Made by a program: the position numbers and the translations under genes. Shown piece after piece: positions 30,661 to 59,686 of a stretch of 64,000 nt of DNA. Numbering within the stretch: position 1 is the stretch's first letter; every line of letters begins with the position of its first letter. Source of the DNA: Dehalococcoidia bacterium (GTDB taxonomy: Bacteria; Chloroflexota; Dehalococcoidia; SHYB01). The stretch spans positions 1,366,374-1,430,373 of the forward strand of contig OZ253453.1 of the NCBI GenBank assembly GCA_965261455.1. Reading direction: 5' to 3'. Under the pieces are notes generated by a model that saw only the letters and a program-made list of their open reading frames with translations, searched no databases and was not told where the DNA came from.

Positions 30661-30840
30661 GCCTGCTTCCCCTTCGGCGTCTCCCCCTGGAGACCTTTGC
30701 AAAACCGACTGGGGTTCTGGCGGGGGGAGCGGAGGTGGCATTCACTTAAACCTCTCCCCTGTGGGGGAGACTGAGAGAGGGCACGCGCCGTCAGGCGCGC
30801 AGCGCCCAAGGGGCGCTCCCCCCTCCGCGGCGCAGCTACG
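30661..30840. repeat. modular intergenic hairpin repeat (modules M1+M2), one of at least 9 copies in window
   Basis: Near-identical to 40885-41062, 47703-48070 and 49725-49880. Contains CTCTCCCC-tgt-GGGGGAGA hairpin and GC hairpins. Confidence 0.8.
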
Positions 30841-31698: not shown

Positions 31699-31704
31699 TA
31701 TAAT
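31699..31704 (+). promoter_or_regulatory. TATAAT -10 hexamer 42 nt upstream of ATG 31747
   Basis: gtgttttataatgggcc. Isolated AT-rich hexamer directly upstream of the Prx gene. Confidence 0.4.
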
Positions 31705-31746
31705 GGGCCGCGCATTCGAGACCACGCAGGATAAAGGCCCATCCCC

Positions 31747-32202
31747 ATGCTGAACATCGGCGACTCCGCCCCCGACTTCACCGCCACCGACCACACCGGC
31801 GCCCAGATGCGCCTCTCCGACCTTCGCGGCAAGAAGGTCTGGCTCTGGTTCTATACCTCTCCCGGAGGCGGGAACTGAACCCGCCACAGTCACGGGTACC
31901 GTGACAACTGGACGGCTTGGCAGGAAAAGGGCGTCGAGGTCTTCGGGGTGAACGACCGGAGTGCCGAGGACGCCGCGGCGTGGGTCGAGCGCGAGCAGCT
32001 CCCCTTCCGCATCCTCGTCGACGCCGACCGCGCCATCGGAACGGCCTTCGGCGTCTCGCAGCCCACCGCCGAGAAGTACGTGGCGAACAACGCCGAGGGC
32101 AGGCGTCCCGGCGTGCTGATCGACGAGGAAGGGAAGATCGCGCTTGCGCTTCCCGACCTCCGCAACGTCGAGGGGCAAGTCGAGGCGCTGAGCGGAATCT
32201 AG
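31747..32202 (+). CDS. Bcp-type peroxiredoxin (AhpC/TSA family) with in-frame TGA at the peroxidatic Cys position (candidate selenoprotein)
   Basis: Aligns to E. coli Bcp across the TGA at 31876 (FYTSPGGGN-U-TRHSHGYRDNW...VNDRS vs [21 protein letters not shown]...ISTDK). The 31948-32202 track ORF continues in the same frame. SECIS-like stem-loop 31884-31911 begins 11 nt after the UGA. Confidence 0.6.
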
Positions 32203-33234: not shown

Positions 33235-33440
33235 AGTATACAGACCCGCGACACTCGGTCGGCGCCACCGAGGGGAGGCCTTTGCGCAACCCGCCTGTGC
33301 GCAAGCATGGGTGGGGCCGGGAGGTCTTGCCTCTTCTCCCGTGGGGAGAAGATTGAGATGAGGGGCACCCTCGCAACCGCCACGGGTTATCGAAGCCCGC
33401 CACCTTCACGGTCAGTCAGCCCGGTTACGCAAAAGCCTTG
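33235..33440. repeat. modular intergenic repeat (module M3, hairpin CTTCTCCC-gt-GGGGAGAAG)
   Basis: Copies at 47575-47640, 49440-49600, 49900-50010. Confidence 0.75.
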
Positions 33441-33442
33441 AG

Positions 33443-33451
33443 TGGTAGAAT
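33443..33451 (+). promoter_or_regulatory. extended -10 promoter TGGTAGAAT, 43 nt before ATG 33495
   Basis: TGn plus TAGAAT. The same element recurs at identical spacing before each tandem paralogue. Confidence 0.5.
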
Positions 33452-33494
33452 CCGGCGCAGGGCTTGGCTGGCGGCCCGATACGGGAGGGAAACT

Positions 33495-34979
33495 ATGGCG
33501 GCGGTTTCGAGCAAGTCGGCGGCGATTCGCGCAAAGCTCGATCATCCGATCATCGACTCCGACGGCCACCTCATCGAGGTGACCCCCGTGCTCTACGACT
33601 ACATCCGCGACGAGGGCGGCGAGCAGGCGCTCGCAAGATACAAGGCGGCCATAGAGCCACACTGGACGCACCTCTCGTCCGAAGAACGGCGCGACGGCCG
33701 TGTCACCGCCAATACCTGGTGGCTTGCGCCCACCAAGAACGGCCTCGACCGTGCTACGGCCATGATCCCGCGCCTCCTTTCCGAGCGCCTCGACGATCTC
33801 GGCCTCGACTTCTCCGTCCTGTACCCCTCAGCGGGCTTGCTCTACCCAAGGTGGGCCGAAGAGGACGTCCGGCGCGTCAGCTGCCGGGCTTACAACAGGT
33901 ACGTCGCCGACGCCTACGGCCCCTATTCGTCGCGACTGGCCCCGGCGGCACTCGTCCCGATGCACACCCCGGAAGAGGCCATCGAGGAGATGGAGTTCGC
34001 CGTGCGGGAGCTCGGGCTGAAGGCCGCCATGATCGCGGGCCACGTCCGCCGGCCGGTCGGCAAGGTCCAGTCGCGGCATCCCGGCGCCGTGGCGGGGTAC
34101 GGCTGGTGGTTCGACGCGTTCGGCGAGGATAGCGAGTACGACTACGACCCCGTCTGGGCCAAGGCCATCGAGCTTGGCCTCCCCCTGGCGACGCACCACG
34201 GCGGCTTCGGCTTCACCAACAACTCGAACACCAACAACTTCATGCAAAACCATCTCGGCCACTTCGCCAACGCGGCCAATCTGCTCTGCAAGTCGTTGTT
34301 CTTCAGCGGCGTCACTCACCGCTTCCCCAAGCTCCGCATGGGCTTCCTGGAATGCGGCGCGGGATGGGCCGCCGACCTCTACGGCGGCATCGTCGCCCGC
34401 TGGGAGAAGCGCAACCCCGAGGCGCTGCAACACGTCGACCCGAGACTGCTCGACGAGGACCGCGTCATGGATCTCTTCGCCGCCTACGGCGACGAGAAGG
34501 CGGTGGGCAAGCTCGAAGAGATCAAGGAGTCGCTGCGCGCGCCCAGCGTGTTCGCCGCGCAAAACGCCCCGGAGGAGCTCAACGAATTCGCCCGCGCGGG
34601 CATCACCAAGCCCGAAGACATCCGCGACCGCTTCATCCCCAACTTCTTCTTCGGCTGTGAGGCCGACGACCCCATGAACGCCTCCGCGTTCAACACCAAG
34701 ATCACCCCCTTCGGCGCGAAGATCGGGGCCATGCTCAGCTCCGACATCGGCCACTGGGACGTCCTCGACATGCGCGACGTCGTCGAGGAAGCCTACGAAA
34801 TGGTCGAGCACGGCCTCATGACCGGCGACGACTTCCGCGACTTCACCTTCAACAACCCCCTCCGCTTCTTCACCGACCTCAACCCCACCTTCTTCGACGG
34901 CACCGCCATCGAGGACGCGGCGAAGGCGGCCCTCGCCCCTCCCTCCTCCAACCTCTCCCCCGCGGGGGGAGCACCTTAA
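33495..34979 (+). CDS. Amidohydro_2-superfamily protein, tandem paralogue 1 of 4 (about 495 aa)
   Basis: IIDSDGHLIEVTPV metal-ligand N-terminus, gggaggga RBS. C-terminal tail ...PPSSNLSPAGGAP and stop lie inside the downstream hairpin repeat. Confidence 0.8.
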   Translation: MAAVSSKSAAIRAKLDHPIIDSDGHLIEVTPVLYDYIRDEGGEQALARYKAAIEPHWTHLSSEERRDGRVTANTWWLAPTKNGLDRATAMIPRLLSERLDDLGLDFSVLYPSAGLLYPRWAEEDVRRVSCRAYNRYVADAYGPYSSRLAPAALVPMHTPEEAIEEMEFAVRELGLKAAMIAGHVRRPVGKVQSRHPGAVAGYGWWFDAFGEDSEYDYDPVWAKAIELGLPLATHHGGFGFTNNSNTNNFMQNHLGHFANAANLLCKSLFFSGVTHRFPKLRMGFLECGAGWAADLYGGIVARWEKRNPEALQHVDPRLLDEDRVMDLFAAYGDEKAVGKLEEIKESLRAPSVFAAQNAPEELNEFARAGITKPEDIRDRFIPNFFFGCEADDPMNASAFNTKITPFGAKIGAMLSSDIGHWDVLDMRDVVEEAYEMVEHGLMTGDDFRDFTFNNPLRFFTDLNPTFFDGTAIEDAAKAALAPPSSNLSPAGGAP

Positions 34980-35112
34980 GCCCCCCGCAAGGGGAGCACC
35001 TTAAGTCCCCCGCAGGGGGAGCACCTTAAGCCTCTCCCCCTCTGGGGGAGACTGAGAGAGGGCGCGCGCCGCAGGCGCGCGGGTGCCCGGAGGGCGCCCC
35101 TCCCCTCCGCCG
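34952..35112. repeat. tandem 24-bp hairpin units (CCCCCGCAGGGGGAGCACCTTAAG x3) plus 3-hairpin module M2
   Basis: Directly seen. Conserved after paralogues 1-3 (3, 2 and 1 unit respectively). Confidence 0.85.
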
Positions 35113-35114
35113 GG

Positions 35115-35123
35115 TGATAGAAT
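35115..35123 (+). promoter_or_regulatory. extended -10 promoter TGATAGAAT, 44 nt before ATG 35168
   Basis: Same position relative to ATG as the other three copies. Confidence 0.5.
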
Positions 35124-35167
35124 CCGCCGCAGTAGGGGGCCAACGGCCCCGATCGGAGGCGGAAGCC

Positions 35168-36655
35168 ATGGCGGCAACATCGAGCAAGTCGGCGGCGATT
35201 CGCGCAAAGCTAGACCACCCGATCATCGACTCCGACGGCCACCTCATCGAGGTAACGCCCGTCCTGCACGACTACATCCGCGCCGAGGGCGGCGAGAGCG
35301 TCCTCCAACGGGTCAAGAAGAACGCGGATTTCGCGCACTGGACGCAGCTCTCCGCCGACGAGCGGAGCGACGCGCGAACGACCGCCATCACCTGGTGGCT
35401 CGCTCCCACCAAGAACGGCCTCGACCGGGCCACCGCCATGATCCCCCGCCTCCTCGCCGAGCGTCTTGACGACCTGGGGCTGGACTTCTGCGCGCTCTAC
35501 CCCTCGGGGGGCTTGGGCTATCCCCGGCTGCCCGACGAAGAGCTTCGCCGGGTCTGCTGCCGCGCCTACAACAAGTACGTCGCCGACACCTACGGCCCCT
35601 ATTCGTCGCGCATGACGCCCGCGGCGCTGATCCCGCTGCACAACCCCGAAGAGGGCATCGAGGAGATGGAGTTCGCCGTGCGGGAGCTCGGCCTCAAGGT
35701 CGCTATGATCGCGGGCCACGTCCGGCGCCCTATCGGCAAGGTCCGACGCGAGCACCCCGGCGCCGTGGCGGAGTACGGCTCGTGGTACGACGTCTTCGGC
35801 GAGGACAGCGAGCACGACTACGACCCCTTCTGGGCCAAGTCCATCGAGCTTGGCATGCCCCTGGCCACGCACACCGGCGGCTTCGGCTTCACCAACAATT
35901 CCAACATCAACAACTTCATGCAGAACCACCTCGGCCACTTCGCCAACGCCGGCAACCTGCTCTGCAAGTCGCTCTTCTTCAGCGGCGTCACCCGCCGCCT
36001 CCCCAAGCTCCGCATGGCCTTCCTGGAGTGCGGCGCGGGATGGGCCGCCGACCTCTACGCCGGCATCATCGCCCGCTGGGAGAAACGAAACCCCGAGGCG
36101 CTGCAAAACGTCGACCCCCGGCACCTCGACGAGGACCGCATCATGGATCTCTTCGCCGCCTACGGCGACGAGAAGGCGGTGGGCAAGCTCGAAGAAATCA
36201 AGGAGTCGCTGCGCTCGCCGAGCATGTTCGCCACCCACAACGCGCCGGAGGAACTCAACGACTTCGCCCGCGCCGGTATCACCAAGCCCGAAGATGTCCG
36301 CGACCGCTTCATCCCCAACTTCTTCTTCGGTTGCGAGGCCGACGACCCCATGAACGCCGCCGCGTTCAACACCAAGATCACCCCCTTCGGCGCGAAGGTC
36401 GGCGCAATGCTCAGTTCCGACATCGGCCACTGGGACGTCCTCGACATGCGCGACGTCGTCGACGAGGCCTACGAACTGGTCGAGGACGGCCTCATGACCG
36501 GCGACGACTTCCGCGACTTCACCTTCAACAACCCCCTCCGCTTCTTCACCGACCTCAACCCCGCCTTCTTCGACGGCACCGCCATCGAGGACGCGGCCAA
36601 GGCGGCCCTCGCCCCTCCCTCCTCCAACCTCTCCCCCGCGGGGGGAGCACCTTAA
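35168..36655 (+). CDS. Amidohydro_2-superfamily protein, tandem paralogue 2 of 4
   Basis: About 85% identical to paralogue 1 by eye. ggaggcggaag RBS. Confidence 0.8.
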   Translation: MAATSSKSAAIRAKLDHPIIDSDGHLIEVTPVLHDYIRAEGGESVLQRVKKNADFAHWTQLSADERSDARTTAITWWLAPTKNGLDRATAMIPRLLAERLDDLGLDFCALYPSGGLGYPRLPDEELRRVCCRAYNKYVADTYGPYSSRMTPAALIPLHNPEEGIEEMEFAVRELGLKVAMIAGHVRRPIGKVRREHPGAVAEYGSWYDVFGEDSEHDYDPFWAKSIELGMPLATHTGGFGFTNNSNINNFMQNHLGHFANAGNLLCKSLFFSGVTRRLPKLRMAFLECGAGWAADLYAGIIARWEKRNPEALQNVDPRHLDEDRIMDLFAAYGDEKAVGKLEEIKESLRSPSMFATHNAPEELNDFARAGITKPEDVRDRFIPNFFFGCEADDPMNAAAFNTKITPFGAKVGAMLSSDIGHWDVLDMRDVVDEAYELVEDGLMTGDDFRDFTFNNPLRFFTDLNPAFFDGTAIEDAAKAALAPPSSNLSPAGGAP

Positions 36656-36764
36656 GTCCCCCGCAGGGGGAGCACCTTAAGCCTCTCCCCCTCTGGGGGA
36701 GACTGAGAGAGGGCGCGCGCCGCAGGCACGCGGGTGCCCGGAGGGCGCCCCTCCCCTCCGCCGG
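36628..36764. repeat. 24-bp hairpin units x2 plus module M2
   Basis: Near-identical to 34952-35112. Confidence 0.85.
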
Positions 36765-36765
36765 G

Positions 36766-36774
36766 TGGTAGAAT
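36766..36774 (+). promoter_or_regulatory. extended -10 promoter TGGTAGAAT, 44 nt before ATG 36819
   Basis: Conserved spacing. Confidence 0.5.
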
Positions 36775-36818
36775 CCGGCGCAGTACGGGGCCAACGGCCC
36801 CGATCGGAGGCGGAAGCC

Positions 36819-38303
36819 ATGGCGGCAACATCGAGCAAGTCGGCGGAGATTCGCGCGAAGCTGACGCACCCGATCATCGACTCGGACGGCCACCTCATCG
36901 AGGTGACGCCGGTGCTCTACGACTACATCCGCGCCGAGGGCGGCGAGCAGGTGCTGGAGCGGTTCAAGGCCCAGGGAGGGCCGCACTGGACGCAGGTATC
37001 GCTCGACCAGCGCCGCGACGCGCGGATGACCGCGAGCACCTGGTGGCTCGTCCCCACCAAGAACGGCCTCGACCGCGCCACGGCGATGATCCCCCGCCTT
37101 CTCGCCGAGCGCCTCGACGAGCTCGGTCTGGACTTCTGCGTGCTCTATCCCTCGACGGCGCTGCCCTTCCCGAGCCTCGCCGACGAGGAGCTCCGCCGCG
37201 TCTGCTGTCGGGCGTACAACAAGTACGCCGCCGAAATGTACGCCCCCTACGCGCGGCAGATGACTCCCGCGGCGCTGATCCCGATGCACACGCCCGAGGA
37301 GGGGATCGAGGAGCTGGAGTTCGCCTCGCGGGAGCTTGGCCTGAAGGTGGCCGCGATGGCGGGCTACGTCCGCCGGCCCATCAAGAAGTTGCAGCGCGAG
37401 TTCCCAGGGGCGTCGGGACAGTTCAGCGTCTGGCACGACGTCTACGGCGAGGACAGCGAGTACGACTACGACCCCTTCTGGGCCAAGGCCATCGAGCTTG
37501 GCATGCCGTTGTCGACGCATTCGGCGGGCTTCGGCTTCACCAACAACTCCAACATCAACAACTTCATGCAGAACCACCTCGGCCACTTCGCCAACGCCGC
37601 CAACGTGCTCTGCAAGTCGATGTTCTTTAGCGGCGTGACCCGCCGCTTCCCCGCGCTCCGCATGGCCTTCCTCGAGTGCGGTGCGGGCTGGGCCGCCGAC
37701 CTCTACGCCGGCATCATCGCCCGCTGGGAGAAGCGCAACCCCGAGACCCTGCAGGGCGTCGACCCGAGCCTCATGGACGAGGACCGGATCATGGAGCTCT
37801 TCGCGGCCTACGGCGACGCGCGCGCGGTGAGCAAGCTCGAAGAAATCAAGGAGTCGTTAGTCGGGACCGGAGTCCTCGCCGGGCGGAACGCGCCGGAAGA
37901 CCTCAACGACTTCTCCCGGTCCGGCGTAACCAAGCCGGAAGACATCCGCGACCAGTTCGTCCCCAACTTCTTCTTCGGCTGCGAGGCCGACGACCCCATG
38001 AACGCCATCGCGTTCGACTCCAAGATCGCTCCCCTCCGCGCGCGCGTCGGAGCCATGCTCAGCTCCGACATCGGCCACTGGGACGTCATCGACATGCGCG
38101 ACGTAGTCGAGGAAGCCTACGAGCTGGTGGAGGACGGCGTGATGACCGCCGACGACTTCCGCGACTTCACCTTCGCCAACCCCCTCCGCTTCTTCACCGA
38201 CCTCAACCCCGCCTTCTTCGACGGCACCGTCATCGAAGCCGAGGCCAAGGCGGCCCTCGCCCCTCCCTCCTCCAACCTCTCCCCCGCAGGGGGAGCACCT
38301 TAA
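36819..38303 (+). CDS. Amidohydro_2-superfamily protein, tandem paralogue 3 of 4
   Basis: MAATSSKSAEIRAKLTHPIIDSDGHLIEVTPV.... Confidence 0.8.
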   Translation: MAATSSKSAEIRAKLTHPIIDSDGHLIEVTPVLYDYIRAEGGEQVLERFKAQGGPHWTQVSLDQRRDARMTASTWWLVPTKNGLDRATAMIPRLLAERLDELGLDFCVLYPSTALPFPSLADEELRRVCCRAYNKYAAEMYAPYARQMTPAALIPMHTPEEGIEELEFASRELGLKVAAMAGYVRRPIKKLQREFPGASGQFSVWHDVYGEDSEYDYDPFWAKAIELGMPLSTHSAGFGFTNNSNINNFMQNHLGHFANAANVLCKSMFFSGVTRRFPALRMAFLECGAGWAADLYAGIIARWEKRNPETLQGVDPSLMDEDRIMELFAAYGDARAVSKLEEIKESLVGTGVLAGRNAPEDLNDFSRSGVTKPEDIRDQFVPNFFFGCEADDPMNAIAFDSKIAPLRARVGAMLSSDIGHWDVIDMRDVVEEAYELVEDGVMTADDFRDFTFANPLRFFTDLNPAFFDGTVIEAEAKAALAPPSSNLSPAGGAP

Positions 38304-38387
38304 GCCTCTCCCCCTCTGGGGGAGACTGAGAGAGGGCGCGCGCCGCAGGCGCGCGGGTGCCCGGAGGGCGCCCCTCCCCTCCGCCGG
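38266..38387. repeat. 24-bp hairpin unit x1 plus module M2
   Basis: Near-identical to the preceding two intergenic modules. Confidence 0.85.
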
Positions 38388-38388
38388 G

Positions 38389-38397
38389 TGGTAGAAT
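38389..38397 (+). promoter_or_regulatory. extended -10 promoter TGGTAGAAT, 44 nt before ATG 38442
   Basis: Conserved spacing. Confidence 0.5.
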
Positions 38398-38441
38398 CCG
38401 GCGCAGTACGGGGCCAACGGCCCCGATCGGAGGCGGAAGCC

Positions 38442-39899
38442 ATGGCGGCGGCTTCGAGCAAATCGGCGGCGATTCGCGCAAAGCTGACGCATCCGATCAT
38501 CGATGCGGACGGCCACCTCATCGAGGTCACGCCGGTGCTCTACGACTATGTCCGCGCCGAGGGCGGCGAGGGAGTGGTCCGGCGGCTCAAGGCGGAGATT
38601 GAGCAGTCTCACTGGACGCGGCTCTCGCCCGGCGAACGGCGCGGCGCGCGGGTGCCCGCCATCACGTGGTGGCTTGTCCCCGCCAAGAACGGTCTCGACC
38701 GGGCGACGGCAATGATCCCCCGCCTTCTCGCCGAGCGTCTCGACGGTCTCGGTCTCGACTTCTGCGTCCTCTACCCCTCGCTAGGGCTGGACTTCCCCCA
38801 TCTGGCCGACGAGGAGCTCCGGCGGGTCTCCTGCCGGGCCTACAACAAGTACGTCGCCGAGATGTACGCCCCCTATGCGCGGCAAATGACGACGGCTGCG
38901 GTGATTCCGATGCACACCCCCGAAGAGGGGATCGAGGAGCTTGAGTTCGCCTCGCGGACGCTTGGCCTGAAGACCGCCATGATCGCGGGCCACGTCCACC
39001 GCCCCATCGGCGAGGCCCGGCGCGAGCATCTGGGGGCGATTGGGCAATACGGCCCTCAGCGCGGCTCGTGGTACGACACCTTCGGCGAGGACAGCGAGTA
39101 CGACTACGATCCCTTCTGGGCCAAGGCCGTCGAGCTAGGGATGCCTCTGGCGGCGCACTCGTCCGGTTTTGGGTTCACCAACAACTCCAACGTCAACAAT
39201 TTCATGCAGAACCACCTCGGCCACTTCGCCAATGCGGCCAACCTACTGTGCAAGTCGCTGTTCTTTAGTGGAGTAACCCATCGCTTCCCCGCGCTCCGCA
39301 TCGCCTTCCTGGAATGTGGAGCGGGTTGGGCCGCCGACCTCTACGCCGGCATCATCGCCCGCTGGGAGAAGCGCAACCCCGAGGCCCTGCAAGGCATCGA
39401 CCCTCGCCAGCTTGACGAGGACCGTGTCATGGAGCTTTTCGCGGCCTACGGCGACGAGAAGACCGCGGGCAGGGTCGAAGAGATCAAGGCGTCGCTTCGT
39501 TCGCCGAGCCTGTTCGCCGCGCAGAACGCGCCCGATGATCTCAACGACTTCTCCCGGTCCGGCATCACGAAGCCGGAGGACATCCACGACCGCTTCGTCC
39601 CCAACTTCTTCTTCGGCTGCGAGGCCGACGACCCCATGAACGCCGTCGCCTTCGACTCCAAGATCGCCCCGTTCGGCGCGCGCGTCGGCGCAATGCTCAG
39701 CTCCGACATCGGCCACTGGGACGTCATCGACATGCGTGACGTAGTCGAGGAAGCCTACGAGATGGTCGAGCACGGCCTCATGACCGCCGACGACTTCCGC
39801 GACTTCACCTTCGCCAACCCCCTCCGCTTCTTCACCGACCTCAACCCCGCCTTCTTCGACGGCACCGTCATCGAAGCCGAGGCCAAGGCCGCGCGGTAA
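38442..39899 (+). CDS. Amidohydro_2-superfamily protein, tandem paralogue 4 of 4 (lacks the repeat-encoded C-terminal tail)
   Basis: MAAASSKSAAIRAKLTHPIIDADGHLIEVTPV.... Ends ...AEAKAAR. Confidence 0.8.
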   Translation: MAAASSKSAAIRAKLTHPIIDADGHLIEVTPVLYDYVRAEGGEGVVRRLKAEIEQSHWTRLSPGERRGARVPAITWWLVPAKNGLDRATAMIPRLLAERLDGLGLDFCVLYPSLGLDFPHLADEELRRVSCRAYNKYVAEMYAPYARQMTTAAVIPMHTPEEGIEELEFASRTLGLKTAMIAGHVHRPIGEARREHLGAIGQYGPQRGSWYDTFGEDSEYDYDPFWAKAVELGMPLAAHSSGFGFTNNSNVNNFMQNHLGHFANAANLLCKSLFFSGVTHRFPALRIAFLECGAGWAADLYAGIIARWEKRNPEALQGIDPRQLDEDRVMELFAAYGDEKTAGRVEEIKASLRSPSLFAAQNAPDDLNDFSRSGITKPEDIHDRFVPNFFFGCEADDPMNAVAFDSKIAPFGARVGAMLSSDIGHWDVIDMRDVVEEAYEMVEHGLMTADDFRDFTFANPLRFFTDLNPAFFDGTVIEAEAKAAR

Positions 39900-40884: not shown

Positions 40885-41062
40885 GAAGTCTTTACTCCTC
40901 TCCCTCTGGAGACCCTTGCAAAACCGACTGGGGTCCTGGCGGGGGGAGCGGAGGTGGCATTCACTTAAACCTCTCCCCCTCTGGGGGAGACTGAGAGAGG
41001 GTGGGGGAGGCGGGGGCCGTGCGACCTTGCTGAAGCCCGCCCGTCGAGTTACGCAAAGGTCT
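40885..41062. repeat. modular intergenic hairpin repeat (M1+M2 variant)
   Basis: ctctccctctggagacccttgcaaaaccgactggggtcctggcggggggagcggaggtggcattcacttaaacctctccccctctgggggagactgagagaggg..., matching the 30661 copy. Confidence 0.8.
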
Positions 41063-41091
41063 CCTCTGGGAGCGGGTTGGGGCGAGAGCAC

Positions 41092-42243
41092 ATGCACTAC
41101 GAAGTCATCTCGACCGACGACCACCTGCAGGAATCTTCGACGGTGTGGACCGACCGCATGTCGAAGAGCAAGTGGGGCGGCAAGGTCCCCCACATACGTG
41201 AAGTCGAGGGCGGCAACGAGCGGTGGCACATCTGGGACATCCCGATGCAGCGGAGCCTGGGCACCGTGCAAGGCGCCGTCGCCGGTGAGTTCCCCGACGG
41301 ACTCGGCCCCGACCGCTGGGAGGACATGCCCAGGAAGACCTACGTCCCCACGGAGCGCCTCAAGGCGATGGAAGAGGACGGCGTCGACGTCCACACGTTC
41401 TTCAGCAACATCGCCGGCGTCGCCGGGCAGACGTTCAGCAACCCCATCTATGCGGACGTCGACTTCCGCATGGAGTGCATCCGCGCCTACAACGATTGGC
41501 AGATCGAAGAATGGGCCGATCCCTACCCCGGACGCTTCATCACCATCGCGCTCGTGCCGCTGTGGGACGCCGAGCTCGCCGCCGCCGAAGTCCGCCGGAT
41601 GCACGAGCGCGGCGTGAAGGCGATCTCCTTCTCCTTCCCCCAGCAGTTCAACTATCCCCACATCTCCGACCCATTCTGGGACCCGTTCTGGCAGGCGGCG
41701 CAGGACGCCGGCCTGTCGGTCAACCTCCACATCGGCTCGGGCGGCAGCATCGGCATCATCAACGAAAGCTGGAGCGGACGGGGCCGCATGGTGCAGGTCG
41801 CCGACGGCAGCACCAAGGGGCTGGCGTCGAACATCCAGGTGATGAGCACCCTCCTCTACTCCGGCATCTTCGACCGCTTCCCCACCCTCAAATTCGTCTC
41901 ATCGGAAAGCGGCCTGGGGTGGGCGCCCTATCTGCTGGAGACCGCCGACCACCAGTGGGAGTCGCAGCGCCTCTACAAGCACGGCATGCCCACCAAGCCG
42001 AGCGAGCTCTTCCACCGCCAGTGTTACATCAACTTCTGGTATGAAGAGACCGGCATCGCCCTCCGCCACGCCATCGGCATCGACAACATCATGTGGGAGT
42101 CCGACTTCCCCCACCCCACCGGCTCCTACCCCAACTCGCGCGCCTACATCGAGCGCACCCTCGCCGGCGTTCCCGAGGACGAGCGGCGCAAGATGCTCGT
42201 CGAGAACGCCATCCGCGTCTTCAACCTCGACGCGCAAGCCTAG
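41092..42243 (+). CDS. Amidohydro_2 family protein
   Basis: ISTDDHLQESSTVW N-terminal motif. ATG 41092 preferred over TTG 41077. Confidence 0.8.
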   Translation: MHYEVISTDDHLQESSTVWTDRMSKSKWGGKVPHIREVEGGNERWHIWDIPMQRSLGTVQGAVAGEFPDGLGPDRWEDMPRKTYVPTERLKAMEEDGVDVHTFFSNIAGVAGQTFSNPIYADVDFRMECIRAYNDWQIEEWADPYPGRFITIALVPLWDAELAAAEVRRMHERGVKAISFSFPQQFNYPHISDPFWDPFWQAAQDAGLSVNLHIGSGGSIGIINESWSGRGRMVQVADGSTKGLASNIQVMSTLLYSGIFDRFPTLKFVSSESGLGWAPYLLETADHQWESQRLYKHGMPTKPSELFHRQCYINFWYEETGIALRHAIGIDNIMWESDFPHPTGSYPNSRAYIERTLAGVPEDERRKMLVENAIRVFNLDAQA

Positions 42244-42336: not shown

Positions 42337-43356
42337 CTAAACGGCTGGGGCGGCCCAGTCGGCCAAGGCCTGGAGATCATGCGCCCAGAAGAGTATCAAT
42401 CCTTGCTTTTGGGCGGCCTGGAGATTGTGCACTTTGTAGACGCCGCTCAACACCGCGACTGGTACGATCTGACGTTCGCCGAACTCACGGAGCCACACTT
42501 CGGCCTTCGCAGCCGCGTCGTTGTTCAGCCTCTTAACTGAGTTGGTTGACGAATTCGACACCTTGCACTCGATCGCCACCAGACGGCTGTCCCGCAGAGT
42601 CACGACAAAGTCCGCCTTTCGGCTCCCAAGCAGGCTTTCGCCACAGAACTCACCCGGTCTCGGCGCGTTCGACATCGTTGTGATCGTCCTCTGCTCGACC
42701 TGAGTGAATCCATTGGAAGAAAAAAGCTCCCCAACCTTCTTCTCCTGCGCTTCCTTCCCCTCGCTGCGCCTCTTGGTCGCCGCGCGGCTCGCGGCGATGA
42801 GCGCCGCCGACGCCAAGACCGCGCCTTCCCGCTCAGGCCCAGTTGGGCCGCGGCCCTCAGACACCCAAGCGAAACGGCGGCGATCTAGCGCCTGAAGCAC
42901 TACCTCGACGATTCGCTGTGCGAGGTCTGGGTCTTCGCGAAGACGCTTCGCGGAGAGAGAACCTTCTACGAGGACTTTCAAGTCGTCCACGGAAATCGGC
43001 GGGCCCGCGAGATAGCGGACCGCATCCAACAAGTGTTCGTCGGTGAGAACTTGGACAGCTTGCTCTTGAAGCTCCGCGAGGTCGTCCGTTGTCTCCAGCA
43101 GTGTTTTGATGTGCTTTTCGTACGCATCAAACGCTTGGAGGTAGCCCTCCAACGACTCGTCTAGGCGCTCCGTGCGGAATTGCTCTATGGCGAGGAGCCG
43201 GTCGCGCTCTAACTCCTCAGCACTCCAGCGGGGCGGGCTCTGCCGGCTAACCAACCGTAACAACTCCAGAAGCCAGCATCTCGGGAGCCGGAACGAGGAC
43301 TCGCTCCATCTCTTTCGGCTCGAACTTGACGAGCCCGCCGGCGTAGGTCCGTCCAT
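42337..43356 (-). CDS. type II restriction endonuclease candidate (PD-(D/E)xK fold), partner of adjacent MTase
   Basis: RKADFVVTLRDSRLVAIECKVSNSS fits D...(E/D)xK. Overlaps the 3' end of the MTase gene. AT-rich codons (tta, ata, aaa). Start uncertain (43374/43356, or TTG near 43240). Confidence 0.55.
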   Translation of the reverse strand: MDGPTPAGSSSSSRKRWSESSFRLPRCWLLELLRLVSRQSPPRWSAEELERDRLLAIEQFRTERLDESLEGYLQAFDAYEKHIKTLLETTDDLAELQEQAVQVLTDEHLLDAVRYLAGPPISVDDLKVLVEGSLSAKRLREDPDLAQRIVEVVLQALDRRRFAWVSEGRGPTGPEREGAVLASAALIAASRAATKRRSEGKEAQEKKVGELFSSNGFTQVEQRTITTMSNAPRPGEFCGESLLGSRKADFVVTLRDSRLVAIECKVSNSSTNSVKRLNNDAAAKAEVWLREFGERQIVPVAVLSGVYKVHNLQAAQKQGLILFWAHDLQALADWAAPAV

Positions 43357-44971
43357 CGCTGAGACGCACCTCATTCGACAGGTAGTCGCGGAGCGTTTCC
43401 AAGGCGAGCGGCGACAGGGGCTCCCTCGGATATATTCCGTGCGCGATGTTGAGAAGCCGCGCCCCGATGGGATTCAGGGCAAAGGCCGGCGGGCGCCTCG
43501 CCATATAGGTAGCGACGATCGGCGCGGGAGGGCGCAAGTTCACCGCCCACCAGCACTTCCGGTTCTTCGCCACGTAGCCTTCGTGAGCGCCCAAGAGTCG
43601 GGCAACGTGCAGGAATCGTTCGACGGACTTTCGGTCCTCTGTATCAAGGACATCAAGGCCCTCCGGCAGATCAATTACGTACCGGAGGCGCGCCGCATCC
43701 GTCAATACCCCCGACGAGTCGATGATTTCTCTGGCCCTCGTAACGGTGGGGGTGAGGACCCTCGCCGGAAGGCCCTGACTGTGGGCTCCCGCTATCCAAA
43801 CGCGGTTGCTCCCCGTCACAGACCCCCTATGTACACGGCACAACTCGCCAAGCTCGACAAAACCGGCGGGTGCCGCCCGGCGCTTCCCAGGCAGATTGCT
43901 CCAGCGCCTTTCAGTTGCTAGCTGCTCCCGGGGAACGGGATGGCCAGTCTCTAGGTTGCCAAGGTCGTCAATGGTGCCGACCTTTCGGAACCTCACATGC
44001 TCGGAAGGGCTCCCCACCTTGAACGTGGTAATGACGCCCGTTGTGGCTGCGTCGGGAAACGGCTGCGCGGCAGGGTCTACGATCGTGAGCGTCTGCGCGT
44101 GCAAAGACCTGACCAACAGGTCTCGCACGAGCCGTCCATAGTTGACGTCGAGCCACTCCGCCGCGGTAACGAATACGCCATAGTCGCCAGGCTGCGCTTT
44201 TAGTAACGTCGAGAGGAAGAAGTGTGCGTGCAGTCCAGCTAGCTGGCTCGCTCGGAAATCCCGCGCGTCTGCCTCGCGCGTAAGCCATTCCTTCCACTGC
44301 GAATCGATTAGGTGATGCCTAACGTACGGAGGGTTGCCGACAAACAACGTCGGCCCGTCGGCTAGAGGAATCTCAACGCTCCTGTAGTCCTCGACGAGGA
44401 CACTGCTTCGCTGCGAGAAGCCGGCGAGGGCCAGATTGGCGCGGGACACCATGGCGGCCAAGGGATCCACCTCGACGCCGACGAGGTCCGCCTTCGGGAA
44501 GGCGCTACCGGCGGCTAGCAGGAAGCGGCCGGACCCGGCGCCGACATCTACGACGCGATCCGGCGGGCCGTGTCGCCGCCCCCAAGCGATCATCGCTTCG
44601 ACAATCGGCCATGGCGTATAGGTGGCCCCCAACTTGCGGCGCTCGGCGCGGCTCCGGACGATAGCGAAGGCTGCACCCAATGGATCACCGCCCGCAAGCA
44701 CGCGGCGGCGCACTTCGTTCAACTCCGGTGCGGATGGCCGCCACTGCGAGGCAGCCAAGAACGGCGACTCATGCGCTCCGGCGGCAAGGGCGGCCGTTAT
44801 TGCTAGGCGCTCCTCGGTCGCCGCGCAACTCAGCGCGCTTTCCAGACCTTCCGAGGCCGACGCCTCAGCAGTGGACCTCCAGGATTCGAGCGGCGTAAGA
44901 AGGGGCGGACGAAAGACGCCAGTCGCCAAAGCCGAGCGATCGGATTCGGTTGCCGCTGTGAGCCTCGCCAT
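43247..44971 (-). CDS. gamma-class N6-adenine DNA methyltransferase (Eco57I/TaqI-like N6_Mtase with C-terminal target-recognition region)
   Basis: Motif I VVDVGAGSGRFLL and motif IV LFVGNPPYVRH in gamma order. 574 aa. Confidence 0.8.
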   Translation of the reverse strand: MARLTAATESDRSALATGVFRPPLLTPLESWRSTAEASASEGLESALSCAATEERLAITAALAAGAHESPFLAASQWRPSAPELNEVRRRVLAGGDPLGAAFAIVRSRAERRKLGATYTPWPIVEAMIAWGRRHGPPDRVVDVGAGSGRFLLAAGSAFPKADLVGVEVDPLAAMVSRANLALAGFSQRSSVLVEDYRSVEIPLADGPTLFVGNPPYVRHHLIDSQWKEWLTREADARDFRASQLAGLHAHFFLSTLLKAQPGDYGVFVTAAEWLDVNYGRLVRDLLVRSLHAQTLTIVDPAAQPFPDAATTGVITTFKVGSPSEHVRFRKVGTIDDLGNLETGHPVPREQLATERRWSNLPGKRRAAPAGFVELGELCRVHRGSVTGSNRVWIAGAHSQGLPARVLTPTVTRAREIIDSSGVLTDAARLRYVIDLPEGLDVLDTEDRKSVERFLHVARLLGAHEGYVAKNRKCWWAVNLRPPAPIVATYMARRPPAFALNPIGARLLNIAHGIYPREPLSPLALETLRDYLSNEVRLSDGRTYAGGLVKFEPKEMERVLVPAPEMLASGVVTVG

Positions 44972-45131: not shown

Positions 45132-46271
45132 CTACGCGCTGATGCCGTACAGCCCCGCGGCGTTGTCGTGGAGGATCGCGCGGCGCTCGTCAGCGGCGAC
45201 GTCGGCGTAGTTCTTTTCCAGCGTCTTCGCGGAGTCGGGGAAGGTCGAGCTCTCCAGGGGAAACTCGGAGTACCACATCACGTTCTTGGCCCCGATGACG
45301 TACAGCAGCTTCAGGCCCACCTGGTCGAACGACGTTGTCACGAAGCCCTGGCGATGGAAGATCTCGCTGGGCGCGGTCTTCATCTCGACGTTCTCGCTCT
45401 TCAGGCAGATGCGCTCCCACTCGTGATCGGACACTTCGAGCATGAACGCGAACCAATCGATGCCGGTGGCGCTAAACACGAACTTCACGTCCGGGTGGCG
45501 CTCGCCGACGCCGGAGAAGAGGAAGCGGCAGACGATCATGCCGCTGCTCGAAGGACGGCGCACCACGTCGAACGCCTTGGCCACGGCGGGGTCGAAGCCC
45601 TCGTAGATATGCATCATCAGACTCGGCACGCTGCCCGAGTGGAAGCAGACCGGTACGTCGAGGTCGCCAATCTGCTTCCAGAACAGGTCCCAGTCGGGGT
45701 CGTAGAGGTGCGGCGTGCCGTCGTTGATACGCCACGGAGCCGCGGGGAGAACGATCCCCTTATGACCAGCCTTCACGGCCTTGACCGCGCCCGCCCTCGC
45801 CGCCTCGATTGAGCTGATCGGCACCAGCGCCTGCGGGACGAGGCGGTCGCTGCTCCATGTCTCCAGGAGCCAATCGTTATAGGCGTCGACGCAGGCGGCT
45901 TGGAGCTCGGGGTCTTTGATCGCACCGAGAATCTCGCCGCCGAGGCCCGCGATGTAGGGGTAGAGCACGGCGGCGGCGATGCCGTCCTCGTCCATGGCCT
46001 TCAGGCGCTCGGCGGGATCGTAGCTCGCCGCGGGGACCTGGTCCCACGTCTCGATGTCGAGGTACCGGTCGCCGTTAGAGATAGCGCGGGCGCGGGAGAC
46101 GGGCCACTCGGCCAGGACTTCGCCATCGACCAGCCAGCGGTCACGGCCGTCGGATTGGCGCTCAATGCGGGGGCCGCGCTCCGCCAGGCTCTTGGGCAAG
46201 CGCGACATCCAGAGGTCGGGCGGCTCCTGCACGTGGTCGTCTGAGGAGATGATCGGGAAGTCGAGAGCCAT
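45132..46271 (-). CDS. Amidohydro_2 family protein
   Basis: ISSDDHVQEPPDLW N-terminal motif, 379 aa. Confidence 0.8.
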   Translation of the reverse strand: MALDFPIISSDDHVQEPPDLWMSRLPKSLAERGPRIERQSDGRDRWLVDGEVLAEWPVSRARAISNGDRYLDIETWDQVPAASYDPAERLKAMDEDGIAAAVLYPYIAGLGGEILGAIKDPELQAACVDAYNDWLLETWSSDRLVPQALVPISSIEAARAGAVKAVKAGHKGIVLPAAPWRINDGTPHLYDPDWDLFWKQIGDLDVPVCFHSGSVPSLMMHIYEGFDPAVAKAFDVVRRPSSSGMIVCRFLFSGVGERHPDVKFVFSATGIDWFAFMLEVSDHEWERICLKSENVEMKTAPSEIFHRQGFVTTSFDQVGLKLLYVIGAKNVMWYSEFPLESSTFPDSAKTLEKNYADVAADERRAILHDNAAGLYGISA

Positions 46272-46306: not shown

Positions 46307-47437
46307 TTAGTTGAGCTTGAAGACCTTCTTAGGGTTCTCCACCAGTATCTGGTACTGCTCCTCCTCCGGCACGTTCTGGAACGCCTTGGCCACGAACTCG
46401 TTGGTGTTGGGCCACAGGGAGGTCGGATGGGGGAAGTCGGTCTCCCACATGATCCGGTCGACGCCGATGACGTGGCGGTAGTGTTCCACCGCCGAGCGCT
46501 CGTACCAGAAGTCGACGTAGCAATGCTGCTTGAAGAGGTCGGTGGGACGGGTGGGCAGGCCCTTGTTCCACAACTGGCCCTGCTCCCAAGCGTAATCGCA
46601 GGATTCGAGGAGCCAGGGGAGCCAGCCGATGCCGGTCTCGGCAGCGACCAGGGTGAGCGTGGGGTAGCGGTCGAAGACGCCCGCGAACAGGAAGTTGGCG
46701 AAGTACTGGGGCTGGATGCTGAAGCCCGAGGCGGCGAGCGCGGCGTCGTTGCGGCGATGCTCCTGCGTGGCGTGCTTCTCAATGCGCATGCTCTGCGGGG
46801 CCGCGCCCGAGCCGTGGACGGTGAGCACGAGGTCGAGATCGACGACCGTCTGCCACAGCGGCTCCCAGTAGGGCGAGCTGTAGTTTTCCAGCCCGCGGGT
46901 GTGCGGCGTCCCCACCAGCATCACACCGCGGTGCCCGTTCTTCGCGTTGTGATGGACCTCTTCCAGCGTCTTCTCCATCGAGTAGTAGACAGGGACGGTG
47001 AGGGCCACGAACCGGTTGGGGTTGACGTTGACCCACTCCTCGGTCTGGTAGTCGTTATACACGCGGACGCACGCGGCCTCGAACTCGGGGTCGAGGCCCT
47101 GGAAGCGGTCACCCGAGACGCCCGTCGTGTTGGCGTACATGACCTGGCAGTCGGTGCCCTCGGAGTCCATCGCCTTCATGCGTTCCTCAGCGACGTACAC
47201 GGACGGGGGGATCATGTCCCACCGGTTCGGGTTGGTGACGCGGTCGGGCATGACGGCGGGGCACGTCGAGAGATAGCCCGTCGGCTTGCCATCCACCCAC
47301 CACTCATCACGCTCGGCACTCTGGCGGATGTGGGGGATGCGGTCGCCCCATTTCTCTTTCGACATGCGGCTGGTCCAGGTGTTGGGTTTTTCCTGAATAT
47401 GCGAATCGACGTCGATCCTGCGATAGGGATAGCCCAC
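46307..47437 (-). CDS. Amidohydro_2 family protein
   Basis: IDVDSHIQEKPNTW motif. GTG 47437 with AGGAGG 8 nt upstream. The track's upstream extension to 47692 runs into the repeat element. Confidence 0.75.
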   Translation of the reverse strand: MGYPYRRIDVDSHIQEKPNTWTSRMSKEKWGDRIPHIRQSAERDEWWVDGKPTGYLSTCPAVMPDRVTNPNRWDMIPPSVYVAEERMKAMDSEGTDCQVMYANTTGVSGDRFQGLDPEFEAACVRVYNDYQTEEWVNVNPNRFVALTVPVYYSMEKTLEEVHHNAKNGHRGVMLVGTPHTRGLENYSSPYWEPLWQTVVDLDLVLTVHGSGAAPQSMRIEKHATQEHRRNDAALAASGFSIQPQYFANFLFAGVFDRYPTLTLVAAETGIGWLPWLLESCDYAWEQGQLWNKGLPTRPTDLFKQHCYVDFWYERSAVEHYRHVIGVDRIMWETDFPHPTSLWPNTNEFVAKAFQNVPEEEQYQILVENPKKVFKLN

Positions 47438-47506
47438 GGTATTCCTCCTGAATTGCGGCCCGCGTTCCCGCGCTCTGATTCGGCCCGCCTGCGCCCCTGA
47501 GAGTAG

Positions 47507-48255
47507 CATAATCCGGCAGCGGAAACCACGACGAACGCCGCCCTTCCCCTCCTGTCTCCTCTCTCCCTCTGGAGACCTTGCGCAACCCGCCCGCGGGCAA
47601 GCATGGGTGGGGCCGGGAGCTCTTGCCTCTTCTCCCGTGGGAGGCCTTTGCAAAACCGACTGGGGTTCTGGCGGGGGGAGCGGAGGTGGCATTCACTTAA
47701 ACCTCTCCCCCTCTGGAGACCTTGCAAAACCGACTGGGGTCCTGGCGGGGGGAGCGGGGGTGGCATTCACTTAAACCTCTCCCCCTCTGGAGACCTTTGC
47801 AAAACCGACTGGGGTCCTGGCGGGGGGAGCGGGGGTGGCATTCACTTAAACCTCTCCCTCACGGAGACCTTTGCAAAACCGACTGGGGTCCTGGCGGGGG
47901 GAGCGGGGGTGGCATTCACTTAAACCTCTCCCCCTCTGGAGACCTTTCCAAAACCGACTGGGGTCCTGGCGGGGGGAGCGGGGGTGGCATTCACTTAAAC
48001 CTCTCCCCCTCTGGGGGAGACTGAGAGAGGGCGGGGGGAGGCGGGGGCCGCGCGACCTTGCTGAAGCCCGCCCGCCGAGTTACGCAAAAGTCTCCTCTCG
48101 GGGAAACTGAAAGAAGGCACACGCCCCAGGCGCGTTGGAGGCGGGCGGGGGCGGCCAGCGGCGCGCCAAAGCCCATCGAAGCCCGCCCCCTTCCGCTCTC
48201 TCCCCCTCTGGAGGACACTGAGAGAGAGCGCCGCCGCGCCCGCCTCCAAGGCCGC
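47507..48255. repeat. composite repeat block: M3 fragment, then 75-bp direct tandem repeat x about 5 (47641-48001), then M2-type hairpin modules
   Basis: Unit ctctccccctctggagacctttgcaaaaccgactggggtcctggcggggggagcgggggtggcattcacttaaac repeated head-to-tail with 1-3 mismatches. No unique spacers between copies. Confidence 0.85.
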
Positions 48256-48285
48256 CGAAAGAGCAGAGAAAGCAAGACTCCCTTG

Positions 48286-49374
48286 ATGCAGCAAGACGTA
48301 CGCGCGATCGTTTTCACCGGCGACGGACGGCACGAAGTGCGGCGGTTCGCCAAGCCCGACCCGCCGGAGGGCGGGCTCGTGCTGCGCGTCGAGGCCGTGG
48401 GCCTCTGCGGCAGCGACGCCGCCCAGCTTCACGGCCATCGCCTCGTCGGCAACGCCGTCTTCCCCGTCGTTCCCGGCCACGAGACCATCGGCCGGGTGGA
48501 GCGCATCGACCCCGCCGGCGACTGGACCGTGCGCGAGGGCGACCGCGTCGCCGTGGACGAAGTGCTCCGCTGCGGAACGTGCCGCTTCTGCCGCGCCGCT
48601 AGCACCCGCTGCGAGCGGCTCAAAGTCTACGGCTACTCCTTCGGCGCGGACGACGGCCCCGGCCTGTGGGGCGGCTTCGGCGAGTACATGGCGATTCTCC
48701 CCGGCACACACCTCATACCGGCGACGGACGCCATGCCCGCCGAGGAGCTCACCCTCTTCGAGCCCCTCGCCAACGCGCTCAACTGGGCCGGCATCGCACG
48801 CATCGCGCCCGGCGACACCGTCGTCGTCCAGGGCCCGGGCCACCAAGGGCTCTGCTGCGCCGCGGCGGCGCAACTCGCGGGCGCCGCCGAGATCATCGTG
48901 ACCGGCACGGGCCGGGACGGTCTCCGCCTCGAAACCGCCGCCGCCGCCTTCGACGCCAAGACCATCGACGTCGACGCGGCAGACCCCGTCCAGCGCGTCG
49001 CCGAGCTCACCGGCGGGGTCATGGCCGACGTGGTCATGGACCTCGCCGACGGCGCCCCCTCGACGGTGCCCCTAGCGGTCAAGATGGCGCGCCGAGGAGG
49101 CCGGGTGCTGCTCGCGGGACTCAAGCACGGCAAGCCCGTCGATGGCCTGTCGAGCGACGAAATCGTCAGCAAGATGCTCACCATTAACGGAGGCGCGGGC
49201 GCGACCCCAGAGACGATGGAGCGCGCCGTGCGCCTCCTCGGCGCGGGCCGCATCCCCTCGAAAGCCCTCCTCGGCAACGTCTACTCCATCGACGACGTAG
49301 ACACCGCCATAGCAGCCCTAGAACGCCGCATCCCCGCCAAAGACGCCGTCCGCGTAAGCCTCAAGCTAAGCTGA
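48286..49374 (+). CDS. zinc-binding alcohol dehydrogenase (MDR) family oxidoreductase
   Basis: GHETIGRV catalytic-zinc motif and CGTCRFCRAASTRC structural-zinc motif. ATG 48286. The track's upstream extension lies in the repeats. Confidence 0.8.
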   Translation: MQQDVRAIVFTGDGRHEVRRFAKPDPPEGGLVLRVEAVGLCGSDAAQLHGHRLVGNAVFPVVPGHETIGRVERIDPAGDWTVREGDRVAVDEVLRCGTCRFCRAASTRCERLKVYGYSFGADDGPGLWGGFGEYMAILPGTHLIPATDAMPAEELTLFEPLANALNWAGIARIAPGDTVVVQGPGHQGLCCAAAAQLAGAAEIIVTGTGRDGLRLETAAAAFDAKTIDVDAADPVQRVAELTGGVMADVVMDLADGAPSTVPLAVKMARRGGRVLLAGLKHGKPVDGLSSDEIVSKMLTINGGAGATPETMERAVRLLGAGRIPSKALLGNVYSIDDVDTAIAALERRIPAKDAVRVSLKLS

Positions 49375-49384
49375 GCGAGGGCGC

Positions 49385-50010
49385 TGGAGCGCGGCGCGGC
49401 GGCGCTGGGGCGCGGCGGAGAGGTCTTGCCCCCTCTCCCGCTGGAGACCTTTGCGTAACCCCCCGCGGGCTCAAGCATGGGTGGGGCCGGCAGGTCTTGC
49501 CTCTTCTCCCCACGGGAGAAGATTGAGATGAGGGGCCCCCTCGCAACCACCACGGGTTAACGAAGTCCGCCACCCTCGCGGTCAGCCCCTCCGCCAACGC
49601 CAAGTCCTCGCCGAAGTGCACCTTCAACCTTTCCCCCTCTGGGGGAAACTGAAAGAGGGCACGCGCCCCAGGCGCGTCGGAGGCGGGCGGGGGGCGGCCA
49701 GCGGCGCGCCAAAGCCCATCGAAGCCCGCCCCCTTCCGCTCTCTCCCTCTGGAGACCTTTGCAAAACCGACTGGGGTCCTGGCGGGGGGAGCGGGGGTGG
49801 CATTCACTTAAACCTCTCCCCCTCTGGGGGAGACTGAGAGAGGGCGGGGGGAGGCGGGGGCCGCGCGACCTTGCTGAAACCCGCCCGCCGGTTACGCAAA
49901 GGTCTCCCCACGGGAGAAGATTGAGATGAGGGGCCCCCTCGCAACCACCACGGGTTATCGAAGCCCGCCACCTTCGCGGTCAGTCACCCCGGTTGCGCAA
50001 AGGCCTCCGC
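49385..50010. repeat. composite block of M1, M3, M2-variant and M3 modules
   Basis: Direct match to modules at 30661, 33235 and 47507-48255. Confidence 0.8.

Positions 50011-58696: not shown

Positions 58697-59686
<990 letters not shown>

Follow-up and report, generated by a model that had tools for sequence, protein, structure and literature searches.

Does the TGA triplet at positions 31876–31878 end a short reading frame, or does it encode selenocysteine (Sec) within a longer one? The question is raised by a peroxiredoxin-like gene on a 64,000-nt stretch of contig OZ253453.1 from a Dehalococcoidia bacterium (hereafter the window, meaning that whole stretch). An earlier note on this DNA, made from the sequence alone, had described the gene as a Bcp-type peroxiredoxin with TGA at the position of the peroxidatic cysteine (Cp), followed by a hairpin resembling a selenocysteine insertion sequence (SECIS). 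The coordinates given there for the gene, the TGA, the hairpin and an upstream TATAAT, as well as the quoted read-through translation, all match the sequence. We place the probability that this is a genuine Sec-decoded gene at about 90%. The UGA is conserved, both of its flanks are coding, the hairpin covaries, and the predicted fold places the UGA-encoded residue at a peroxiredoxin active site; actual insertion of Sec at UGA-44 is predicted from these comparative data. The Sec reading at the peroxidatic position is supported by alternation of TGA with Cys codons, by coding constraint on both flanks, by the covarying hairpin of the bacterial SECIS (bSECIS) type and by the presence of another selenoprotein gene in the window. 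The features on which the argument depends are as follows.

31747–32202, plus strand: Sec peroxiredoxin-like gene of 151 codons including Sec44, from the ATG at 31747 to the TAG at 32200–32202.
31876–31878, plus strand: in-frame TGA, the predicted Sec codon for residue 44, in the codon column of the peroxidatic Cys in the alignment to 5enu.
31889–31905, plus strand: core hairpin of the predicted bSECIS, a 7-bp stem of GUCACGG (31889–31895) and CCGUGAC (31899–31905) closed by the loop GUA (31896–31898).
31884–31911, plus strand: possible lower stem extension, variable between lineages, pairing CCA at 31884–31886 with UGG at 31909–31911, or 31881–31886 with 31909–31915.

Translation through the TGA yields a product of 151 residues, MLNIGDSAPDF...FYTSPGGGN-U-TRHSHGYRDNW...GRRPGVLIDEEGKI..., to which the Pfam AhpC-TSA model (PF00578) is matched from residue 4 to residue 132, across the TGA, with E=2e-26 and 92.8 bits against a cutoff of 26. 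In a phmmer search of PDB sequences, the product aligns without gaps to the BCP-type protein 5enu, with FYPKDNTPGC over FYTSPGGGNU, so that the TGA stands under the peroxidatic Cys, as the earlier note had claimed. Two types of match are returned by the protein search. The first comprises the full-length, 151-residue relatives P0001–P0005, which share 56–58% identity with the window protein and carry Cys in the TGA column (‘FYTSPGGRNCT’). The second comprises many proteins of 84–90 residues that correspond to the C-terminal part alone, such as P0006 and P0014, labelled ‘redoxin domain-containing protein’. These fragments arise because gene callers read the TGA as a stop; at this locus, the publicly annotated fragment is the downstream 84-codon open reading frame (ORF) with a GTG start at 31948–32202. 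In the general databases, annotation pipelines hold the gene solely as such truncated fragments and the full-length enzyme goes unannotated.

The orthologue search, with one genome per species, recovered 69 loci with 44–96% protein identity to the window protein. All derive from metagenome-assembled genomes of Dehalococcoidia, SAR202 or other Chloroflexota, with the exception of one bin labelled Syntrophobacterales. The TGA column contains TGA at 66 of the 69 loci, TGC or TGT at three and no other codon; P0001–P0005 add five more Cys orthologues to these three, and the Cys-containing relatives that the earlier note had asked to be checked do exist. On both flanks of the TGA (codons –20 to –1 and +10 to +50), the amino acids are conserved while the third positions are free to vary, as illustrated by the Gly at –16, which is 97% conserved with all four Gly codons in use. 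This combination indicates purifying selection on one continuous frame across the TGA. Together with the Pfam match spanning the triplet and its retention at 66 loci, the constraint on both sides bears out the claim that the TGA is not a genuine terminator, and the orthologues, 66 of them intact TGA forms, show no pseudogene pattern.

A reassignment of TGA throughout the genome was considered and rejected, because ordinary genes of the window terminate with TGA at the ends of their family models; examples are the ADH gene at 48058–49374 and the IS110 transposase gene at 58715–59686, whose ends match the model ends. A scan based on G+C content at third codon positions (GC3) left 31876 and 51996 as the only credible in-frame TGAs in the window, and two further candidates from that scan, at 25308 and 45424, were discarded as antisense artefacts. 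As a separate observation, the stop codons of the window genes are mostly TAG or TAA: TGA ends about 8 of about 50 high-GC3 ORFs, two of these being the Sec codons, and this scarcity of TGA stops is unusual for a genome of 65.5% GC.

The hairpin downstream of the TGA fits the published bSECIS criteria. In the consensus bSECIS model, the loop measures 3–9 nt, the upper stem 4–16 bp and the distance from UGA to loop 16–37 nt, the minimum free energy is at most –7.5 kcal/mol, and a G stands first or second in the loop, as a rule with G or U after it (PMC13188914). The element in the window lies within all of these limits, with a 3-nt GUA loop in which G is followed by U, a 7-bp stem and a UGA-to-loop distance of 17 nt. 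Its ΔG is –9.2 kcal/mol for the hairpin alone and –17.3 kcal/mol with the lower helix in a 45-nt fold.

The stem is strongly supported by comparison between species. When 67 sequences with TGA are aligned without gaps (A3), 97.8% of the cells of the 7-bp stem are paired, and compensatory changes on both sides are observed at four of the seven stem pairs. At pair 20–36, for example, 38 sequences have G-C and 23 have C-G, and pair 23–33 occurs as A-U, U-A, U-G and G-C. The covariation score was not reached in any of 500 shuffles, pairing falls to 29–45% when the 3′ arm is shifted by 1–3 columns, and the inner five pairs are predicted independently by RNAalifold. At several positions that covary, the changes are synonymous and fall in a third codon position: the Arg codon (CGU, CGC, CGA or CGG) follows the second base of the opposing His, Arg or Leu codon. 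Furthermore, synonymous variation is lost inside the hairpin only: there, Gly is encoded by GGG in 66 of 67 sequences, Tyr by TAC in 67 of 67 and Asp by GAC in 39 of 39, whereas in the rest of the gene the four Gly codons are evenly used. The description of a textbook-spaced SECIS-like hairpin in the earlier note is thus upheld by both the bSECIS limits and the covariation of the stem. A lower helix can be drawn in many of the sequences, but it differs from clade to clade and is out of register, so that the covariation score covers the 7-bp core stem.

Eight Cys forms, comprising the three genome loci and five metagenome contigs for P0001–P0005, served as a control set. Seven of them retain 3–5 of the seven pairs, with a loop that lacks G and a ΔG of 0 to –5.6 kcal/mol. 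The eighth, L072 (positions 501–959 of contig ena:ERZ27251220:k141_109919), has TGC in the TGA column within a sequence typical of the Sec clade (CTRHSHGYRD), and it keeps the GGG codon and all seven hairpin pairs; apparently, Sec was exchanged for Cys very recently in this gene and a fossil SECIS was left behind.

The AlphaFold model of residues 1–151 (predicted local distance difference test score 92.3, predicted template modelling score 0.89) is most similar to BCP/PrxQ proteins. The best PDB matches found by Foldseek, with template modelling (TM) scores of 0.84–0.88, are 5enu, the E. coli BCP in 9a4d, Sulfolobus Bcp1 and Bcp4 and M. tuberculosis BcpB. In the model, residue 44 directly precedes helix 46–53, which is the site of the peroxidatic Cys in peroxiredoxins, and Arg120, invariant in 24 sequences, corresponds to the conserved peroxiredoxin active-site Arg. 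The redox motif reads U-T-R-H/M, in which the Thr at +1 is 97% conserved; positions +1 to +3 hold neither Cys nor Sec, so the protein does not belong with the UxxC, UxxU or UGC types. Position +5 is occupied by H, L or R in each of the 66 Sec forms, which thus lack a resolving Cys (Cr), and 41 of the 66, including the window protein, contain no Cys at all. A resolving Cys five residues after Cp is not universal in the BCP subfamily. Among the Cys forms, the BCP-type Cp-x4-Cr pair (CT[AV]HAC) is found in six of eight and is missing from L058 and L072. The model for PrxU (NF040737) matches residues 1–108 only, with 36.1 bits against a cutoff of 270.

Several observations count against reading the locus as a Sec-decoded peroxiredoxin. 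Single-sequence folding of the 66-nt stretch is ordinary for its composition (z=–0.71 versus shuffles), so that the hairpin is backed by comparison between species and not by thermodynamics alone, and an Rfam scan of the whole window at gathering thresholds returned no family that matches the hairpin. The 64-kb window yielded no tRNA-Sec, selA, selB or selD, with about half of its roughly 50 predicted genes scanned against Pfam and NCBIfam. As for the enzyme, the Pro and the catalytic Thr of the PxxxTxxC motif are replaced in the ungapped alignment to 5enu, giving T...G..U with Thr at the Pro position, and the product reaches 75.8 bits with the NCBIfam Bcp equivalog model (NF006960), whose cutoff is 140, which leaves peroxidase activity without assurance.

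From fold and active-site position, the protein is probably a peroxidase specifically. An alternative is that the UGA is decoded as Sec in a redox protein that acts on another substrate, for example a reductase or a thiol or selenol transferase for a lineage-specific compound. This is favored by the replacement of P...T..C in a gapless alignment to a solved BCP structure, and by the residue at –3, which is Gly in 64 of the 66 Sec forms, Glu in the other two and never Thr; the Cys-form orthologues have Gly there as well. In addition, the cutoffs of both the Bcp and the PrxQ equivalogs are not reached, ResA-type thiol-disulfide oxidoreductases give nearly equal sequence and fold matches, and the family seems restricted to Dehalococcoidia/SAR202. 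Against this alternative, Sec occupies the Cp position and is not the first residue of a CxxC or UxxC motif, with no Cys at +3 or –3, the peroxiredoxin Arg is invariant, every top fold match is a BCP/PrxQ peroxidase, and the Cys-form orthologues retain the BCP-type pair of peroxidatic and resolving Cys. The near-invariant Thr at +1 might, speculatively, replace the lost Thr. We consider a non-peroxidase unlikely on this balance, and it is the loss of the catalytic Thr that keeps a different substrate a small but real chance. The Bcp-type assignment of the earlier note therefore stands in part: the BCP/PrxQ fold, the Sec at the Cp site and the active-site Arg are confirmed, but the PxxxTxxC motif and the resolving Cys are absent and the score lies under the Bcp cutoff. 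For these latter reasons, ‘peroxiredoxin-like’ is a safer name than ‘peroxiredoxin’.

Strong indirect evidence that UGA is decoded as Sec in this very organism comes from a second gene in the window and from relatives. The second gene, to which the earlier note had pointed as a sign of Sec decoding 20 kb away, is real:

51711–52253, plus strand: UGSC-family selenoprotein gene with TGA at 51996–51998, matched by the NCBIfam model NF041046 (UGSC_fam) with E=1.3e-21.

Its TGA lies 20.1 kb from that of the peroxiredoxin-like gene and is followed after 13 nt by a hairpin, CGUGGA-GUG-UCCACG, similar to the element described above, and the read-through extension has a GC3 of 0.89. The UGSC gene is not part of the peroxiredoxin-like gene; it supports Sec decoding in the organism. 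The ORF directly after it (52263–53321, 352 residues) has no Pfam or NCBIfam match and may encode a functional partner of the UGSC protein. ARAGORN detects no tRNA of any kind in the 64-kb window, hence no selC there. In one orthologue-bearing contig (L054), by comparison, ARAGORN places a tRNA-Sec about 800 nt from the TGA-containing orthologue, between msrB and trxA, and it matches Rfam RF01852 with 73.1 bits, the gathering score being 47. The same contig shows, at 3628–4763, what amounts to a small redox/selenium cluster: the Sec peroxiredoxin-like gene is followed by msrB, the tRNA-Sec (4254–4347, minus strand) and thioredoxin. Furthermore, two genomes with orthologues are published as selenoprotein-rich: ‘Dehalococcoidia bacterium UBA1141’ with 49 selenoprotein genes (the source of L028) and isolate 10f4566d-... 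with 46 (the source of L026) are both among the ten richest bacteria (PMC13326102, Table 2, the BSepDB paper).

These data bear on the possibility that the UGA is read through without Sec, either by hairpin-stimulated near-cognate insertion of Trp, Cys or Arg or by Cys carried on tRNA-Sec, to give a full-length protein that is not a selenoprotein. Such a reading draws on the scans of the 64-kb window, which showed no Sec machinery for this genome, and on the database protein P0009, which shows W in the Sec column. The W, however, most likely comes from a translation table in which TGA encodes Trp and is an annotation artefact, not evidence for Trp, as the relatives at the DNA level all carry TGA and the hairpin. 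Across 77 sequences, TGA alternates with Cys codons only and never with Trp or Arg codons. The hairpin fits a SelB-type bSECIS in spacing and in its G-U loop, a tRNA-Sec adjoins one orthologue, relatives are published as selenoprotein-rich, and the position is a redox-active site at which known selenoproteins use Sec. Read-through without Sec is accordingly very improbable. It is scarcely credible that translation stops at the TGA to leave a 43-residue peptide, with the 84-codon GTG ORF at 31948–32202 separate or unexpressed in a pseudogene or split gene: public gene callers do report only the C-terminal fragment of 84–90 residues, but fragments of this kind are what software that ends genes at TGA would be expected to produce, 66 species would not retain a nonsense mutation in one and the same column while purifying selection acted on both halves in a single frame, codons +1 to +23 between the TGA and the GTG are conserved as protein, no frameshifts or extra stops occur in the 69 loci, and in the AlphaFold model the thioredoxin fold needs residues 1–151, neither half being sufficient.

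Taking Sec decoding as the preferred reading, the following mechanism can be proposed. Beginning 10 nt past UGA-44, the hairpin would present its GUA apical loop to the elongation factor SelB, which would bring Sec-tRNA(Sec) to the UGA so that the ribosome inserts Sec rather than terminating. The ribosome would then melt the hairpin and read on through its codons, S-H-G-Y-R-D. In the folded protein, Sec44 is predicted to lie at the N-terminal end of helix alpha-2, beside the conserved Arg120, where its selenolate would most likely reduce a peroxide, the presumed substrate, or another oxidised substrate, and become selenenic acid. Because the window protein is without any Cys, an external thiol partner would be needed to re-reduce the oxidised selenium, and a ‘1-Sec’ cycle is the most likely one; the reductant may be a protein of the thioredoxin or glutaredoxin type or a low-molecular-weight thiol.

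Our comparison with known systems shows that the gene is best described as a lineage-restricted subfamily within the established Sec-peroxiredoxin superfamily and decoding mechanism. The closest reported group is the Sec ‘Prx’ family with a TxxU motif (COG1225/PF00578, COG1225 being the Bcp group), which was represented by 43 sequences in the Sargasso Sea data (PMC1088965; Zhang, Fomenko & Gladyshev 2005) and by 253 sequences in the GOS data, in which UGSC proteins likewise rank near the top in abundance (PMC2398784). Both groups have a PF00578 domain with Sec at the peroxidatic Cys position, a downstream bSECIS and many Cys homologues, and both co-occur with UGSC-family selenoproteins in aquatic bacteria. 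They differ in that the TxxU motif (PxxxTxxU in PMC13188914) is absent from the present proteins, which have G-x-N-U, Thr in place of Pro and no resolving Cys; furthermore, the present subfamily seems confined to Dehalococcoidia/SAR202 and is without an NCBIfam model of its own. BSepDB possibly includes the family already, under the heading ‘Prx’.

With E. coli Bcp/PrxQ (NF006960; structures 5enu, 3drn and 5epf), the proteins share the fold (TM 0.84–0.88), a catalytic site at the start of alpha-2, the active-site Arg and a length of about 150–160 residues. E. coli Bcp/PrxQ is an atypical 2-Cys peroxiredoxin, and the present Cys-form orthologues keep its Cp-x4-Cr spacing, whereas the Sec forms have Sec for Cys, lack the resolving Cys and have the motif Pro and Thr replaced; the Bcp score is below the cutoff (75.8 versus 140 bits). 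PrxU of Eubacterium acidaminophilum, a biochemically characterised Sec-peroxiredoxin (Soehling et al. 2001, as cited in PMC13188914), is likewise a member of the peroxiredoxin superfamily with UGA-encoded Sec at the peroxidatic position. It is longer, however, at about 230 residues, and belongs to another, AhpC/Prx1-like subfamily. The Prx-like 1–3, Trx-like UxxC and UGC-containing selenoproteins (PMC2398784) are set apart by their UxxC, UxxU or UGC motifs, none of which is present here.

At the RNA level, the closest counterparts are the bSECIS elements of E. coli fdhF and fdnG and the consensus model of bSECISearch (summarised in PMC13188914), in which the hairpin also lies in the coding sequence just 3′ of the UGA, with a small G-U loop and a spacing and stem in the same range. 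By comparison, the present GUA triloop on a perfect 7-bp stem is shorter than the E. coli element, no conserved bulged U was identified in it, and its lower stem is not conserved between clades. A more far-reaching proposal is that the ‘GG-x-N-U-T’ proteins form a functionally distinct, Cys-free ‘1-Sec’ branch of the peroxiredoxin fold without the otherwise universal catalytic Thr and Pro, either because Thr is dispensable with selenium or because the substrate is a lineage-specific compound other than peroxide; we regard this as conceivable but doubtful.

Recognition of the Sec codon has a direct consequence for annotation, as pipelines cut the gene to a ‘redoxin domain’ fragment of 84–90 residues in dozens of Dehalococcoidia/SAR202 genomes, and a full-length redox enzyme is thereby restored. 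The peroxiredoxin-like gene and the UGSC gene together would mark the genome as Sec-decoding, which fills out the view that these abundant Chloroflexota of aquatic and subsurface habitats make heavy use of selenium. The orthologues also offer a natural set (66 Sec forms, Cys forms with and without the resolving Cys, and L072) in which Sec/Cys exchange and the minimal SECIS, here a 7-bp stem with a GUA triloop, can be studied. If it is true that selenium makes the Thr dispensable, the family would be a natural experiment from which to learn why Cys gives way to Sec. General knowledge of Sec decoding and of peroxiredoxins is unchanged by the finding.

Two candidate expression signals precede the gene.

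31699–31704, plus strand: TATAAT, a candidate –10 element, 42 nt before the ATG.
31732–31736, plus strand: candidate ribosome-binding site about 10 nt before the ATG, a conserved purine-rich block with AAAGG here and AGAGG or CGAGG in relatives.

The TATAAT does not vary among 7 species, although the intergenic region around it does, and a promoter at this site is plausible on the strength of that conservation. The TATAAT of the earlier note stands at the stated position, but a scan for consensus promoters and terminators found nothing, and no –35 partner came to light. In the candidate ribosome-binding site, the A and the GG (A96, G97 and G98) are invariant in alignment A4. The gene is flanked upstream by a DinB/MDMPI-like gene and downstream by a convergent luciferase-like (LLM) oxidoreductase gene, followed by tandem amidohydrolase genes. 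This gene order is common only to the five closest relatives, which indicates that there is no conserved operon partner, and the DinB/MDMPI-like gene was rejected as a general companion on the same ground.

The wider surroundings are rich in paralogues and repeats. Four tandem Amidohydro_2 paralogues occupy 33438–39899 on the plus strand with a period of about 1.65 kb and 80–93% nucleotide identity, and three further members lie nearby at 41077–42243, 45132–46271 (minus strand) and 46307–47692 (minus strand). Several LLM/F420-type oxidoreductase and enoyl-CoA hydratase genes stand beside them, making up a paralogue-rich catabolic set. An intergenic repeat family with the internally palindromic core CCTCTCCCCCTCTGGGGGAGACTGAGAGAGGG is present at at least nine intergenic sites, including a five-fold tandem array at 47.6–48.1 kb, and looks like a repetitive extragenic palindromic (REP) element or a miniature inverted-repeat transposable element (MITE).

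30677–30828, 33282–33438, 35021–35094, 36672–36745, 38295–38368, 40896–41047, 47546–48149 and 49452–49890: sites of the intergenic repeat.

The same repeats bracket an ORF at 50195–51208 (plus strand) that fails the high-GC3 gene filter and has a weak match, at 25.7 bits and below cutoff, to nucleoside 2-deoxyribosyltransferase-like proteins; it is possibly a gene that was inserted or one of defence type. Elsewhere in the window, the gene for a XamI-type restriction endonuclease (42337–43374, minus strand) adjoins that for an Eco57I-like methylase (43247–44971, minus strand), the IS110-family transposase gene mentioned above lies on the plus strand at 58715–59686, and a large DUF4011/AAA_11 helicase-like ORF on the plus strand (60963–64000) continues past the window end.

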